Assembly (NCBI GenBank): GCA_963765895.1
Contig: CAVXZB010000023.1
Location: 160,001 to 224,000 of the forward strand
DNA length: 64,000 nucleotides
Source: an uncultured Nitrososphaeraceae archaeon
GTDB taxonomy: Archaea > Thermoproteota > Nitrososphaeria > Nitrososphaerales > Nitrososphaeraceae
Reading direction: 5' to 3'
Below are positions 4,329-10,543 of this stretch, piece after piece (within the stretch, counting starts at the first letter, position 1; each line of letters begins with the position of its first letter). The translations under genes and the position numbers were made by a program. A model generated the notes under the pieces. It made no database searches and was not told the origin of the DNA. It was given only the letters and a program-made list of their open reading frames with translations.

Positions 4329-5349
4329 ATGTATTCGCTTGGTATAGAAAGTACTGCTCATACAATTGGATGTTCGGTGATTAAAGTCAATCCAAAGAAA
4401 TTAGAATCCGACGAAAGATGTAAGATCCTATCGGATGTTCGTGCGGTTTACAAAGCTCCAACCGGATCTGGAATCCATCCTCGCGAAGCCTCTCGACATC
4501 ATTGCGAGAAAGCCCCATATATAGTAAAAAATTCCCTCAGTGAGTCTGGAATCAAGGCTGCTGACCTAGATATGATTGCATATTCAGCAGGTCCGGGTTT
4601 GGGACCATGTCTCAGGGTCGGTGCAGTTCTTGCGCGTACCCTGGCAGCCTTTCATCATAAACCGCTTGTTCCTGTGAATCACGCCTTAGGACATATAGAA
4701 TTGAGCCTAATGCTAACCAATTCGTCCGATCCGGTGGTCCTGCTCGTCTCAGGAGGACACACAATGATTCTTGGATTTAACAACAAGAAATGGAGAGTAT
4801 TTGGTGAGACACTTGATATCACTATTGGACAGCTACTAGACCAATTTGGTAGAGCAATGGGATTTGCCTCACCATGCGGTTCGGTGATAGAGCAGCTTGC
4901 AAGTGAGTCTTCAAGGCGGTATCTCCCCTTGCCCTACATTATAAAGGGAAACGATGTTTCACTCTCTGGATTACTTACTGCAGCCATAGAACGTGGAAAA
5001 GAAAAGAATACCCTTTTGACTGATGTGTGTTACTCATTGCAGGAGACATCGTTTGCGATCCTAACAGAAGCTGTAGAAAGAGCGCTTTCATTTAGTAACA
5101 AAACGGAGGTTTTAGTTGTGGGAGGAGTAGCTGCCAATAAAAGACTCGGACAGATGCTACTGGGCGCCTGTAAGAGGTTATCAAGCAGCCTATTCATCTG
5201 CCCTATTCATTATGCTGGAGATAATGGTGCTCAGATTGCCTGGACTGGTGCAATCGACCACCTTTCAACTGGAAATAGAATCCAAGTAGAACTAGGCAGC
5301 TATTCAACAATCATGGAGATTAGACACAGTCGAGGTCACTTGGAGATAG
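4329..5349 (+). CDS. kae1: KEOPS t6A synthase Kae1 (one apparent frameshift at ~5295)
   Basis: LGIESTAHT, GIHPREA, GPGLGPCL, VNHALGHIE, VSGGHT, DNGAQIA; removing one G restores the conserved end QQSWRLDTVEVTWR* (TAG 5347-5349). Confidence 0.93.
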
Positions 5350-5362
5350 CCGAGATAAATAT

Positions 5363-5740
5363 TCACTTACGACTGTGGTCTGACCGCTCATTTGGGTTAT
5401 TATTTCTTTCTAGGTATATTTCCTTCTGTTCTTCGATCAGCTTTACCCATTTATGGATATTAAAAACCCCGAATTTGAATGCCTTGTCATCTATTGTGGT
5501 TATTACTACTTTTTTGATTATAAATCCTTCTGATTTGGCAGAAGATATCTTGTCTAGAGGCAGATCCAAAAGGACTCCTTCAACCTTCTTTGACAATGTA
5601 GCCATCATACCTTCTGTCTTCTCAAAGATGATTCTTTGATTAGTTAGGGTAAGAATTCCATTCTTTAATCTGTCTTCTGCACAATCTTCCTGAAATACCC
5701 TTATCTCTCCCTCCTTAGGATCCGCTTCTGAAGAACTCAT
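5363..5740 (-). CDS. Small PH/GRAM-like fold protein
   Basis: G-ILTLTNQRIIF...LPLDKISS...KWVKLIEE pattern typical of PH-like domains. Confidence 0.6.
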   Translation of the reverse strand: MSSSEADPKEGEIRVFQEDCAEDRLKNGILTLTNQRIIFEKTEGMMATLSKKVEGVLLDLPLDKISSAKSEGFIIKKVVITTIDDKAFKFGVFNIHKWVKLIEEQKEIYLERNNNPNERSDHSRK

Positions 5741-6504
5741 CGGAACTATATTATTTAGGCGCGTATTATAGATTACGTAGGCCTAGTCTCACAAGTCGGA
5801 TTATAGATGATTTCTGATAAATAAAACGTGATTAGTATTAGTTTTCGATTAGGATTTCCAGTTGAGACAGTGTTAAATACAGGTATGTAATTCTAGTAGA
5901 TACCAAAATCTTCGAAATGGATTTCATAGTAATGTTTACGATACAATTATTTCCCTGTATTCTGTATTGAGGGCACGAAATGTGTTGTTAATAAGGGATA
6001 CCTCTACAGGATACAATAGCTGCTCAATGATACGGAGATAGAAAAGATGAATTTTGTGATGTTATTGATGATTGTGAGAGATAATAAATTTTCGCTCTCA
6101 TAAGAGTAACTTAGATGGATTACACGATATAACTTGAGAGTAGCAATCATATAAAGACATGAATATCACAATTGTCAATTCAATAGTTATCCAATGCTTA
6201 TTCAAACAGCTTTGGATATTGGAATAAATATGCAATAAATATGCAATAGTAGTGAATACCACCATCATTAGTAATAATTATAGTTTAGACATCATGATAT
6301 ACATTGTTACTCAGTGCGGCGCTAACGAAATTCCCTTGTCTATCTTTAGAATATATTGCTTATTTCTAACTTGATTCCTTAATATAGGTGTGAGGAAATA
6401 AATCTAAGGCCATATCCAACACTGATGCACCCCATAAGCCCCTTATTGATATAAGGCTACACTTTGTATAGTATTATTTATGAAACAAATAATCTGTAAA
6501 ATAA

Positions 6505-6762
6505 TCACGATTTAGCTTTCCCTCTTTTTCTTGTCAATAGTGCAGCATTCTTGCGCTCAATCAATCCTTGGTCGTAGCCATAATCAAAATAAATCACATT
6601 TGATGTTTCGTATTCTGGATTATCTATTTCTAATTCTTCGATACTCATTAAAGCATCAAAAGAATTAACGTAACTATGGGATTTCATTAGTAAATTCCAT
6701 CTATGTCTTGTGGCTTGTTTGGCTAGGTCTATTGTTGAAAATACACCGATTTTCATGAACAA
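6505..6762 (-). CDS. Hypothetical protein or gene remnant
   Basis: 85-aa ORF downstream of the His-rich peptide gene; no family recognised. Confidence 0.3.
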   Translation of the reverse strand: MFMKIGVFSTIDLAKQATRHRWNLLMKSHSYVNSFDALMSIEELEIDNPEYETSNVIYFDYGYDQGLIERKNAALLTRKRGKAKS

Positions 6763-6774
6763 AAAATAACATAA

Positions 6775-6800
6775 TTTTTTATTCCAAAAAAAGAAAAAAA
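6775..6800 (-). terminator. Oligo-T terminator of the His-rich peptide gene
   Basis: Two T7 runs on the - strand ~60 nt after the stop at 6860. Confidence 0.5.
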
Positions 6801-6859
6801 TGGCTGCATTGTCAGCGTAGTTTATATTGATTATACTCTAGCCTACTGGGGACGTTTTT

Positions 6860-7018
6860 CTAATGGTGGCGATGATGGAAGAAGTGGTGGTGATGGTGGT
6901 GGTGGTGGTGGTCTGAATGTGCGAATGCATTGTTGGTTAGAGCAGGCGCAGTGGCTACTAGAGCTAATGCAGCTATCATTGCAAGTATGCCTATAACTGT
7001 GGTGGTTCGAGTTTTCAA
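6860..7018 (-). CDS. Secreted poly-histidine peptide precursor (52 aa)
   Basis: TTG start; MKTRTTTVIGILAMIAALALVATAPALTNNAFA|HSDHHHHHHHHHFFHHRHH*; TATA-like TATATAA ~25 nt upstream; T-tract downstream; below ORF-track cutoff. Confidence 0.8.
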   Translation of the reverse strand: MKTRTTTVIGILAMIAALALVATAPALTNNAFAHSDHHHHHHHHHFFHHRHH

Positions 7019-7453
7019 CTTACTACAGTATTAGATTTTGTTATATATTAGGTTAAGGTAACAAAGTAAACTGATGCAGTTACCAAATATTAGTATATTC
7101 GACAAATGTACTGCCGGTGACAAATGAGGCAATGAGTATTGTAATTTGTTTCTTTAACCCAATCTCAATCATAAGTTTCACAAGTTAAACTATAATTCGC
7201 ATTTATGATGGGATATCTTATACCTATTGTCACTGCTGTTATCAGTCTACTAGTAAAATAATTTACAGTCAAATACTCCTAACGATATACGTCAACCTAT
7301 GTGTAAGCAAATTACTGTATAGAACATGAGATATCCCAAGAACCGATAGAGAGGACAAATGCATGTTTTCACAGGACTGAATCCGCTCTAAACTCAACAG
7401 TTTGGACCATATAAAATACTATCTACAATGGTTACTTAGCTAGAAATTGTAGG

Positions 7454-7704
7454 CGACCGTTGTAGAATTCAGCCGTCTTAGGGGATGATACTCACCTACC
7501 TATGATATCTCGGCTGAATTCGATTTAACGATCGGCTGCTGATTGACAGTCAATATTATAGAGATGGGGTTGGTATTATACATTAGATAACATAGTTAAA
7601 TTTAGATAAATAACATCTTCGTCACAATTATATTTTGGCCGTTGGCAAATTGCGGTCAAGGTTTCTACGTGGTGGTGGTACTTGATTGCAAGATCCAACG
7701 GCCA
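7454..7704 (+). ncRNA. Candidate structured RNA: two long hairpins
   Basis: GAATTCAGCCG(7465-75)/CGGCTGAATTC(7511-21); TGGCCGTTGG(7636-45)/CCAACGGCCA(7695-7704) enclosing an 11-bp stem with two G-U pairs. Confidence 0.4.
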
Positions 7705-8277
7705 CTTCAATTGTTAATTTAAAATTATACAAAGAATATTCAAATAAATTTCTAAATTTGTACAAACTAGCGAACCTAAGATTTTCGATGCTTATGCTAT
7801 CTCCAAATTATCAAAAATGCCGCCAAAATTCATCCAAATGCAAGGAGATGTGGTGCTGAATCAAAATCTGCCACATGTAAGTCTTATCTAGAGATAGCAT
7901 AATCAACATACTTGTAAAACACACAACAGTAGTAAGAGATTCTGCTGCGTCATCCAGAGTGTGAGAGTTTATCTGTGAAGGCAGCTAGTATAAATTGAAT
8001 TTAGAATCTAACAAAAGTTAAACTTAGCCGAAATATTGATCTGGTTTTTATAGTTTATAAGATGCACTTCTGACGGCGTTGGAAAAAGGATAATATTATC
8101 AGACAGAGTTGATAGTTCCTTGATAGGTTTATCCTCACATAGAATAAAACATGGAACTGCGAGACCTGAGAGGTTCTGAATATAAATTAGTTGGCGGATC
8201 AAGTATAGCATGACTATTTGAAATCTTAATCTAGAAACACAATAATTATACATCAGAAAAATCGTCACTATTCATAT

Positions 8278-8892
8278 TTGAATATGGATTATCTAGAGCA
8301 TCTCCGTAATTCAGACCATCGCCTGGCTAAAATTATCGCTGTGATTGGATCATATTCTATAAAGAAAAAGAATGATTCATTTCAAGCATTGATAGAATCT
8401 ATAATCTATCAGCAACTAAATGGACGTGCTGCTGACACCATTTGCGGGAGATTATATGCATATTACGAAAATTCGATCCCAACGCCAAAACAAATTATTT
8501 CGAGCTCAGACAATGAACTAAGAACTCAAGTAGGTCTATCAGGAATGAAAATTATGTATCTAAAGGATCTTGCAACTCATATTCTAGACAATAGGTTGAG
8601 CTTGTTTGACCTACCTAGAATGGAAGATGGAGAAATAATTAGTAGGTTAACAAGAGTAAAAGGCATAGGAAGATGGACAGCAGAAATGTATTTGATGTTC
8701 TTTCTGGGTAGGGAAGATGTATTACCTGTAACTGATCTAGGTTTGAGAAATGCCATGAAAAGAATTTATTCGTTAGATAAGCTTCCTACACCTATGAAGA
8801 TGATTGAGATAGCCAACCCCTGGAGACCATATAGGAGTGTTGCCACGTGGTATTTGTGGAAGTCTTTATCTAATTTTAATAGTATTGGTTAA
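8278..8892 (+). CDS. alkA: DNA-3-methyladenine glycosylase, AlkA/HhH-GPD family
   Basis: SIIYQQL, HhH motif LTRVKGIGRWTAEM, DLGLR, WRPYRSVATWYLW. Confidence 0.88.
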   Translation: MNMDYLEHLRNSDHRLAKIIAVIGSYSIKKKNDSFQALIESIIYQQLNGRAADTICGRLYAYYENSIPTPKQIISSSDNELRTQVGLSGMKIMYLKDLATHILDNRLSLFDLPRMEDGEIISRLTRVKGIGRWTAEMYLMFFLGREDVLPVTDLGLRNAMKRIYSLDKLPTPMKMIEIANPWRPYRSVATWYLWKSLSNFNSIG

Positions 8893-9354
8893 AGTTGAGG
8901 TGATTCGACACGGACTTAAGGGTGATTTCTAAATATTGCCAAACTTACTAAAGCTTCAAATTCCACGATATTGACTTGATTTCTATCATAATTTTTCTGT
9001 TGTATGTAAGCGACTAGTGTGGCCTGAAATTGCAAGTACAGACTGAATCCAATTGATATAAAGTCCCTGAGCCCATTGTCATGTCTATATTGCTCAGCAC
9101 GTATAAATAATAATACTAATCTCACGCTGAGCCAAATCTTAGGCTACAAACAATCATGTAAAAAAGCATATTTTTGAAATCAACATGGGATTTGTATCGG
9201 TATTATCTAATTTGAAGTGGTGCTATGTATATAAAATCATATTTGTACTAGGAATATCAAATATATATATTATTATTATAATGTTAAATGGTTAGTTACC
9301 ATTGTTAATTAATAAATAAATAGTTATTACAACATTGAAGGCACTAGAAAAACA

Positions 9355-9840
9355 ATGAATAGATTAACAACAATCTCATTTGTTGCAGTTATCGCACTTG
9401 CAGCAATACTCTTAACATCGTCCATGGCACATGTTAGCCCAGTGGTCGCAAAGAAAAGCGGAAGTACCAGCGATAAAAGTGGCAGCAGTGGAAGTAGCGG
9501 TGGCAGCAGTGGAAGTAGCGGTGGCAGCAGTGGAAGTAGTAGTAGTAGCGAGCAGTAGCTCATCTAAAAGCGACTATGATAAATTCCAGAAATGCCTCTC
9601 GGATGCCGCTTCAAGTGGGGGGTCTGCAACCAAATCACAAATAAAGACTTGCTATGGCTCAACCTATGGAACAGGTGGCAGCAGTGGAAGTAGCGGTGGC
9701 GAGCAGTGGAAGTAGCGGTGGGAGCAGTGGAAGTAGCGGTGGCAGCAGTGGAAGTAGCGGTGGCAGCAGTGGAAGTAGCGGTGGCAGCAGTGGCGCTGGA
9801 GCCTAGTGACAACACAATAACAATAGATAGCAAGATTTAG
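9355..9840 (+). CDS. Secreted Gly/Ser-rich repeat protein with two-Cys core (apparent frameshifts ~9550, ~9701; stop at 9806 or 9840)
   Basis: Signal peptide MNRLTTISFVAVIALAAILL..., (GSSGSSG)n tracts flanking DYDKFQKCLSDAA...QIKTCYG. Confidence 0.7.
9481..9793 (+). repeat. 21-bp coding tandem repeat GGCAGCAGTGGAAGTAGCGGT in two blocks
   Basis: About 3 copies at 9481-9540 and about 5.5 copies at 9677-9793. Confidence 0.9.
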
Positions 9841-10369
9841 ATCACAACCATAGTTTTACTATCTACACCTTTTTTGATTTCTAATTTATGCGGCCTAATA
9901 GGTAGTTTGAACGCTCTCCATCTAATCATCTTTTGTAGTTCGAAGAATAATTCAAAAATACAGAACATACTCCCGGGCTAATACAAAATTAAGGTAAACT
10001 GATATTGGTAAGATCATTGCTTGGGATATGTACAATAAGAAACTCTTAATGTCATAAATGTTAAGAAAATGATTATAAGGATTTGACAACGAGAGTGGGC
10101 ATGACCTAGACAGTTTACTATATAACGCCAACGATGAATAATGCTAATCTCAGACTATCAATTTACGTAATATCTGGATTTGTGACTAATTAATGTAAAT
10201 AGACTTTACAGACCTTCTTTTAATAAATATCACGCTGAAATGTGAATAATATGAGATGTGATACGGGTTGGATTATGCTATTTATCTTGTCTTACCGCAA
10301 AAAATCGACAAAATAAAAACGAAAATATTTTTATGTGGAAACTGAAAAGTACAACGCAGTACCAAAGAA

Positions 10370-10543
10370 ATGATGACTGACGACGACATACTTGAAATGC
10401 TGCCTCGACGACATGCAGACTTGCCGATCAAAGACATTACAAATAGAATGGATAATTTGATAATAAGAAGAAAGGTACGAATTGTATTGGATGATTTTGA
10501 TGAACCTTGGTATTTTCGAAATGAAGAAAGAGAAAGGAAATGA
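10370..10543 (+). CDS. Small hypothetical protein (possible winged-helix fragment)
   Basis: MMTDDDILEMLPRRHADLPIKDITNRMDNLIIRRKVRIVLDDFDEPWYFRNEERERK*. Confidence 0.3.
   Translation: MMTDDDILEMLPRRHADLPIKDITNRMDNLIIRRKVRIVLDDFDEPWYFRNEERERK

Follow-up and report, generated by a model that had tools for sequence, protein, structure and literature searches.

A predicted exported poly-histidine peptide and its gene family in soil-dwelling Nitrososphaeraceae

What would an archaeon do with an exported peptide made almost entirely of histidine, and is the gene that appears to encode one real? The question arises from a stretch of 64,000 nucleotides (nt), here called the window, from an uncultured Nitrososphaeraceae archaeon (assembly GCA_963765895.1, contig CAVXZB010000023.1, positions 160,001 to 224,000), in which a short open reading frame (ORF) joins an apparent export signal to a tail of little but His. 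An earlier note, made from the DNA alone, had proposed this frame as the gene of a candidate ribosomally encoded metallophore, an exported peptide for scavenging or buffering metal. Sequence comparisons indicate that the His-peptide gene is genuine: it is conserved, it has its own promoter and terminator, and its tail is selected to stay His. For its product we favour, at a probability of about 0.5, an exported Cu, Ni or Zn ligand that would buffer or sequester these ions outside the membrane.

The precursor gene and its conservation

The coding region comprises the following parts:

6860..7018, minus strand: precursor coding sequence of 52 codons, with a TTG start at 7018-7016 and a TAG stop at 6862-6860
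6920..7018, minus strand: signal-peptide part, codons 1-33, with K2 and R4, a 17-residue hydrophobic core, Pro at -9 and A-F-A at -3..-1
6863..6919, minus strand: predicted mature peptide of 19 residues, composed of H-S-D, nine His, F-F and H-H-R-H-H

Read from the minus strand of the window, the precursor is MKTRTTTVIGILAMIAALALVATAPALTNNAFAHSDHHHHHHHHHFFHHRHH, followed by TAG. Its N-terminal part has the features of a Sec signal, namely a positive n-region, a hydrophobic core and small residues at -3 and -1; the signal was called by eye from signal-peptide rules, with cleavage predicted after A-F-A. Lipoprotein, twin-arginine and pilin-type signals do not match, as the precursor lacks a Cys at +1, an R-R pair and the short n-region of pilin-like signals. 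This reading of the ORF agrees with the earlier description of a Sec-type signal ending in A-F-A ahead of a 19-residue mature part with 14 His, the first residue among them. The 14 His codons are 9 CAC and 5 CAT. The predicted peptide lacks Cys, has a mass of ~2.6 kDa and a calculated net charge of ~+12 at pH 5.5 and ~+0.4 at pH 7.5. Its start, H-S-D-H, does not form the amino-terminal Cu- and Ni-binding (ATCUN) motif of a free N-terminus with His at position 3, the third residue being Asp; this Asp is nearly invariant in an alignment of 20 family members (A1).

A six-frame search of 41 genomes found strong relatives in all six of the same-genus genomes searched (best E 1e-22 to 7e-8); outside the genus there were weak, signal-like matches only. 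The earlier note had asked for homologues that keep the His frame; in 15 of 15 metagenome loci the His tail is in phase with the signal (14 are complete and one runs off its contig). The gene is divergent from the same HhH-GPD glycosylase gene in the source genome (G000) and in three same-genus genomes (G001, G004 and G006), and the other flank varies. Pooled over six sequences, the ratio of nonsynonymous to synonymous polymorphism (pN/pS) for codons 2-36 is 0.23 in the peptide frame; the two alternative frames of that strand give 1.12 and 1.64. Genomes of close kin in these comparisons are non-independent samples.

The start codon also has comparative support. Nine aligned loci share a common distance to the TATA box and have an oligo-T run after the stop, and in seven of them the start position is occupied by TTG. 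In one paralogue codon 1 is ATG and the internal ATG at codon 14 is absent, which supports codon 1 as the start.

The tails of orthologues follow a common plan, in which H-S-D is followed by 5-19 His and then by 1-4 modules of F-F plus five His, each module encoded by a 21-nt unit. The window tail is the shortest version among them, with one F-F and one His-to-Arg change. Ten distinct orthologous tails together hold 223 His codons (140 CAC, 83 CAT), 40 Phe codons (all TTC) and 11 others, so synonymous change is common and replacement rare. The mixed CAC/CAT codons and the in-frame signal had been the earlier note's argument against a simple microsatellite. In alignments A1 and A3, the small residues (Ala) at -3 and -1 of the signal and a Pro are nearly invariant, and the members are otherwise divergent.

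Contigs from public runs gave two views of the tract itself. A 216-nt contig from one soil run (X2) equals window positions 6834-7049 with zero differences, but this run may be the source sample and is not counted as independent. In an 800-nt contig from a soil run of a different study (X5), the tract measures 103 nt versus 52 nt in the window (6870-6921), a gain of 51 nt or 17 codons; the two differ by a strain-level length polymorphism. Such fast change in tract length is a clean case from nature of how repeats drive variation in an exported archaeal product. The public runs found to contain the stretch are DNA metagenomes of soil and plants; there are no RNA runs among them, which says nothing about expression.

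The source genome comprises 4.9 Mb in 88 contigs, is 88% complete and has 36.8% G+C. Its archaeal amoA, together with closest gene relatives in Nitrososphaeraceae, supports the assignment of the host to the ammonia-oxidising archaea of that family. The amoA match (G000 C24:168102-168652) is split over three frames (profile positions 1-86, 84-108 and 109-183), which reflects either a broken copy or indel errors in the assembly that introduced two frameshifts. The source assembly may thus carry indel errors, and the His-peptide gene is confirmed by relatives from other assemblies.

The gene is bounded by what appear to be transcription signals of its own:

7041..7050, minus strand: TATA box TAATATATAA, at -32..-23 from the start codon
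7057..7084, minus strand: conserved block between an operator (described below) and the TATA box, with the inverted repeat GGTAAC ... GTTACC
6786..6800, minus strand: oligo-T terminator, T7-C-T7 on the coding strand, 60 nt past the stop

The orthologues in G001, G004 and G006 keep the TATA box at this spacing, and its position implies a leaderless or very short-leader mRNA. The block at 7057..7084 is conserved at three loci (L048, L044 and L043) and partly at two others (L045 and L029), and a T-run lies at a similar distance after the stop in nine of nine loci compared.

These data bear on the possibility that the frame has no function and is a chance-open trinucleotide repeat, an assembly artefact or a leader peptide of the his-operon type. 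The tail DNA is indeed a (CAC/CAT)n microsatellite, the split amoA points to possible indel errors, and bacterial his leader peptides contain runs of His codons. Against this stand purifying selection on the signal part, the conservation of promoter, terminator, operator and synteny, and the recurrence of the same design in 15 metagenome contigs and in assemblies with contig names like those of short-read assemblers. A non-repetitive paralogue (HSDN..SWYWY..) is, moreover, identical in four metagenome contigs and G004, and three poly-His frames in the source genome that lack a signal have another explanation (below). A his-operon leader was rejected: no his genes lie downstream, where there are instead the oligo-T terminator and an unrelated 85-codon ORF, Rfam gives no match, and the precursor has an export signal. 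The non-functional reading is largely refuted, and we regard it as extremely improbable.

A family of signal-plus-poly-His genes

The window gene has relatives within its own genome. A whole-genome scan for His-dense frames identified at least eight small signal-plus-His genes, six of which have near-pure His runs behind signals ending in AFA, ALA, AYA or AHA; one of these has ~40 His, three have ~28-30, one has 18 flanked by Cys pairs and the window gene has 14. The remaining two encode His/Lys repeats. Apart from the window gene, the seven paralogues are located at G000 C12:39403, C23:76750, C23:245481, C24:208653, C78:25959, C87:105130 and C88:166873. The earlier picture of a stand-alone gene therefore holds for its promoter and terminator but not for its number, as it is one of at least eight family members. 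Some paralogues would begin with D-G-H or G-G-H after predicted cleavage, which we take to be the classical amino-terminal Cu/Ni-binding motif.

His-dense frames, defined as frames of 40-140 residues in the source genome with at least 8 His in 10 residues, are associated with signals: a strongly hydrophobic 15-mer lies upstream in frame in 9 of 14, versus 2366 of 39805 other frames (5.9%; Fisher p = 1.4e-8). Three signal-less poly-His frames (C25:22138-22266, C59:34174-34302 and C26:7917-8024) were rejected as family members, being antisense to Asp/Gly-rich C-terminal tails. The genes to which they are antisense are of the luciferase-like monooxygenase type and lie in a repeated, more G+C-rich element.

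Runs of nine His codons occur in 114 registers in the source genome, compared with 2 for a control pattern and a maximum of 37 among 200 other genomes of the order. This expansion of copy number and tract length would fit a proton buffer, in which dense imidazoles (pKa about 6) outside the membrane damp the acidification caused by ammonia oxidation, and 14 titratable groups in 19 residues would change charge over pH 5.5-7.5. Small free peptides would, however, diffuse off, and large amounts would be needed; we consider this role very unlikely.

To what extent does the family reach beyond the genus? Profile A1, run against 1.84 billion representative proteins, matched 49 representative clusters at E <= 0.001, three of them at E <= 1e-10. 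The matches are 32-157 residues long, and nearly all combine a similar signal with a His-rich tail that also has Phe, Tyr, Trp, Gly, Asp or Cys, with one or two questionable cases. Profile A3, applied at E <= 1e-7, found signal-bearing proteins rich in His, Asp, Tyr and Gly in 5 of 40 other Nitrososphaeraceae genomes and in none of 160 genomes from 19 other families of the order. Pfam gave nothing above cut-off for the window peptide or for 15 relatives and paralogues scanned, and the window peptide, the only member scanned against NCBIfam, reached no family's cut-off there. A word-index search of the protein collection returned no candidate for the window peptide, and the ESM Atlas no usable match.

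The composition of these relatives, which combine His with Tyr, Phe, Trp and Gly, raises the possibility of a structural or adhesive peptide, whose His/aromatic tails self-assemble or coacervate, possibly with metal cross-links, or stick the cell to its acidic surface layer (S-layer), to matrix or to minerals. We presume a resemblance to His-rich structural proteins in this His/aromatic/Gly composition, and the restriction of the family to soil-dwelling Nitrososphaeraceae seen with A3 would be in keeping with such a role. Composition is the whole of this case; the peptides are very short for it (19-45 residues) and no matrix or biofilm genes are adjacent, which leaves it unlikely.

The earlier expectation that gene callers would miss such genes is not supported for the family: some relatives are called, in 49 representative clusters, and the exact window protein was found neither by the word search of the protein collection nor in the Atlas. 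The genes are short and often start with TTG, so their annotation is patchy; the mature peptides offer trypsin hardly any cleavage sites and would escape standard proteomics. Among these abundant soil nitrifiers, an entire class of exported peptides may for these reasons have gone unnoticed. In line with the earlier note, which knew of no description, literature searches on His-rich peptides in ammonia-oxidising archaea and on copper limitation in N. viennensis, supplements not covered, found none. The accessible text of the N. viennensis copper-limitation paper, again exclusive of supplements, contains no 'His-rich' and a single, unrelated 'histidine' (PMC7785015). An exported family of near-pure poly-His peptides in archaea is apparently undescribed.

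Two further groups of genes were seen beside the family. Six contigs of the source genome (C48, C84, C78, C41, C87 and C73; L002-L008) encode paralogous secreted proteins of 100-130 residues, the mature part of which has His as its first residue and a His-rich beginning, followed by either Ala-rich repeats or a Cys-containing domain rich in Asn, Gln and Gly; they match no Pfam family. In three separate assemblies, another paralogue (L029:3022-3195 in G001, and L081 and L082) carries TTA, which is no start codon, where the start is otherwise conserved, and has six more in-frame codons, five of them His, past its TGA stop.

A shared operator and the proteins under it

Which other genes might act with the peptide? 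Upstream of the window gene lies a palindrome that recurs at orthologues and at some paralogues, one of these in another genus:

7093..7111, no strand assigned: 19-bp palindromic operator, consensus GTAYATTCG-N-CGAATRTAC with one mismatch, 74 nt upstream of the start codon

Allowing at most 2 mismatches, five same-genus genomes have 14, 15, 9, 15 and 38 sites, with 0 for a reversed control; the source genome has 4. Genes 20-125 nt downstream of the palindrome recur between genomes. From this distribution, the palindrome is predicted to mark a genus-wide regulon of exported or envelope proteins and ABC (ATP-binding cassette) exporters, with these putative members:

His/Phe peptide, a recurrent downstream gene
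Secreted protein of ~200 residues, Met-rich in its N-terminal region, whose folded part has invariant His and Cys (A5)
Secreted protein of ~214 residues with an invariant AxA|HQ, so that His is first in the mature part (A4)
Secreted protein of ~375 residues
MacB/LolD-type ABC ATPase, divergent from a protein of ~260 residues
Membrane protein of 160 residues with an HIHRPH motif
Small zinc-ribbon protein

The shared operator provides a handle on the regulation of the peptide genes. We presume that its 9-1-9 layout resembles the operators of DtxR-type repressors. A DtxR-type repressor is encoded in the source genome (L052:1720-2172).

Two of the co-regulated proteins have features like those of metal ligands. 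In the Met-rich protein (L088:1557-2189 and relatives; C56:23614-24177 in the source genome), the low-complexity N-terminal region contains MNPMNP, MSGMNM and HMHM, presumably akin to Cu(I)-binding Met motifs. For the rest of this protein the predicted fold is a generic jelly roll, with a best Z of 7.2 and no Foldseek match at E <= 0.001. The N-terminal-His protein (L098:602-1243) has 606 homologues, all annotated 'hypothetical', and those with a named source are from Nitrososphaeraceae. Its AlphaFold2 (AF2) model, with a predicted local distance difference test (pLDDT) score of 74.8, has a predicted beta-sandwich fold, for which a representative-wide aligner gave these matches:

DUF4426, Z 8.5
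H. pylori CrdA (copper resistance), Z 8.4
FtrA-P19, Fe/Cu-bound, Z 7.7
HftA, Z 7.4
Tp34, Z 7.2
CopC, Z 6.3

This likeness of the predicted model to copper-protein folds is suggestive only, and we treat the A4 family as a candidate N-terminal-His copper-binding protein. PDB sequence searches with three co-regulated proteins returned nothing meaningful.

The presence of exporters in the regulon also speaks to a different role, that of a pH-switched, membrane-active peptide used in competition. Such an antimicrobial peptide would be neutral when made and exported, become cationic in the acidified surroundings of an ammonia oxidiser and attack the membranes of neighbours as a Phe-striped amphipathic helix, in the manner of His-rich peptides of the histatin and clavanin types. 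If the heptad of five His and two Phe is helical, all Phe fall, by computation, within ~140 degrees of the helix circumference, and the same arc of the helical wheel would hold all aromatics; the calculated charge rises from ~0 at pH 7.5 to ~+12 at pH 5.5. The pairing of a conserved signal with a hypervariable cargo in multiple copies is typical of families of toxin and defence peptides, the MacB/LolD-type exporter genes share the operator and adjoin one paralogue, and one relative weakly matches the putative bacteriocin family YxzE (E 0.004, sub-threshold). That match is far under the cut-off, however, and no immunity gene was recognised. The window tail, with its 19 residues and single F-F pair, and the longest paralogues, which are pure His, fit poorly with a hydrophobic face, the latter having none. 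We consider this role fairly unlikely.

A proposed extracellular metal buffer and its alternatives

The favoured reading, an extracellular metal buffer, draws on the chemistry of poly-His together with the co-regulated exported proteins and their metal-ligand-like features; the Met-rich and N-terminal-His proteins under the same operator make metal binding more likely. In the parts of the published work available, prokaryotic His-rich low-complexity regions are enriched in metal-binding proteins, and poly-His peptides of vipers bind Zn, Ni and Cu and are thought to chelate outside the cell (PMC6821194, PMC9472272, PMC12108757).

As we envisage it, the precursor would be exported by the Sec system, where a tail nearly uncharged at cytoplasmic pH should be able to cross the membrane. 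Signal peptidase most likely cuts after A-F-A, and the cut would free an almost pure His peptide of ~2.6 kDa between membrane and S-layer or into the surroundings; if left uncut, the His tail would be tethered outside the membrane. There, Cu(II), Ni(II) or Zn(II) would be bound by the many imidazoles together with the free N-terminal His and the conserved Asp 3. The peptide could thus serve as a metal buffer or sponge, either holding a local copper pool for a copper-dependent ammonia oxidiser or keeping excess ions off the membrane, and would act together with the other exported proteins of the palindromic operator. Rapid change of tract length by repeat slippage would tune its capacity between strains. 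Ammonia-oxidising archaea depend on copper enzymes, and the family is a concrete, synthesisable candidate for extracellular copper handling.

Several observations weigh against a metal buffer. Across the ~15 loci examined, genes for metal transporters, chaperones or regulators do not recur as neighbours. The isolated cases are a DtxR-like gene that lies 1.9 kb away from one paralogue, a CDF dimerisation domain, below threshold, in the vicinity of a second, and an ABC-3 permease with a transposase between it and a third. In many relatives Phe, Tyr, Trp or Gly are as abundant as His, and the His/Phe heptad and aromatic-rich tails are not required for metal binding. Since poly-His of any kind binds metals, a demonstration of binding in vitro would be insufficient proof of the role. 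Slippage in 3- and 21-nt repeat units keeps the frame anyway, so the preservation of frame through length changes is not evidence of selection. Among the co-regulated proteins, the BIM1-like Pfam match of the Met-rich protein is sub-threshold (17 versus a cut-off of 27 bits). For the N-terminal-His protein, the aligner gives Z 7-8 to models without a true match, placing the copper-protein matches (to 8.5) within noise, and the model has no Foldseek match at E <= 0.001. A promoter motif for copper limitation has been published for N. viennensis, in the part of the paper available (PMC7785015); it is absent near the window gene, and its 2 matches in the window, both elsewhere, compare with 2.8 expected.

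The earlier note's term metallophore, taken in the strict sense of a chalkophore that would be released, loaded with copper in the soil solution and re-imported by a dedicated transporter, is unsupported. Such an agent would share the chemistry of the metal buffer. The tail has no Cys, and known chalkophores far surpass plain poly-His in the tightness and selectivity of metal binding. Beside none of the loci examined is there an uptake system or a maturation enzyme, and MbnB/TglH (PF05114) was not found in the 88%-complete source genome. In its favour, copper acquisition by ammonia-oxidising archaea is unresolved, and the N. viennensis copper-limitation study, in its accessible text, names candidate genes only (PMC7785015). 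On balance we judge a true chalkophore distinctly unlikely.

The metal-buffer reading could extend to a wider scheme, in which soil Nitrososphaeraceae run an extracellular copper system under one 19-bp operator, with poly-His peptides for Cu(II), the Met-rich protein for Cu(I) and the N-terminal-His protein, and in which His tracts are contingency loci that tune metal capacity from strain to strain. We put this forward tentatively and consider it, taken as a whole, rather unlikely. If true, the poly-His peptides would be the first ribosomal, unmodified chalkophore-like agents of archaea.

How does the proposed metal buffer compare with known systems? Judged by presumed function, its nearest counterparts are Hpn and those His-rich metal binders that are secreted or periplasmic, and it is a member of none of these groups. 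SilE/PcoE, CopM, the N-terminus of ZinT and the loops of ZnuA are exported, Met/His-rich and largely disordered binders of Cu, Ag or Zn; outside the cytoplasm they buffer or pass on metal, and they do so without a dedicated uptake system. These bacterial proteins are larger or form parts of folded proteins, use mixed ligands and are usually encoded in metal-resistance operons, whereas the window genes stand alone, encode near-pure His and have no detectable homology to them. The Hpn proteins are very small, close to half His, and store and buffer nickel. Hpn and Hpn-like of Helicobacter pylori are described, in the portion of the source available, as small His-rich proteins (PMC8704837). They differ from the window peptide in being bacterial, cytoplasmic and devoid of a signal peptide, and the window peptide, which has a signal, matches no Pfam or NCBIfam family above cut-off.

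Methanobactins are likewise ribosomally encoded, exported and copper-related, and come from hosts with copper monooxygenases. In their case MbnB and MbnC turn Cys into oxazolone-thioamide ligands and a dedicated receptor mediates uptake; the window peptide has no Cys to convert, and neither an MbnB in the 88%-complete genome nor an adjacent transporter was found. Peptides of the histatin, clavanin and shepherin types are short, secreted, His-rich and aromatic- or Gly-containing, with a pH-switched charge, and some bind Cu or Zn. They are eukaryotic, unrelated in sequence and much less His-dense, and a comparable activity in archaea is only proposed. The poly-His peptides of vipers are cut from a larger precursor. 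Viper poly-His/poly-Gly peptides are, like the archaeal ones, natural, secreted and short, with runs of consecutive His; they come from an animal, carry a poly-Gly part and lack F-F modules (PMC9472272, PMC12108757), and they have no sequence relationship to the window peptide. Their supposed role, as given in the available part of one report, is to inhibit venom metalloproteinases (PMC9472272).

The surroundings of the window gene are mixed. Its neighbours are a tRNA-modification gene, a PH-like gene, the DNA glycosylase gene, and MFS and MarR genes; there is no tRNA in the region of the peptide gene and no Rfam match in window positions 5000-10500. On the plus strand at 4329-5639, an ORF of the Kae1/TsaD type extends ~130 codons beyond its Pfam domain and fully overlaps an antisense, 125-codon PH-like gene (5363-5740, minus strand). 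The corresponding Kae1/TsaD match in G005 changes frame at residue 321, and the long form in the window may accordingly not be real. The peptide gene itself lies in a 2.5-kb A+T-rich stretch (5740-8278, ~30-35% G+C), whose only convincing genes are the His-peptide gene and the 85-codon ORF at 6505-6762, which is conserved in G006.

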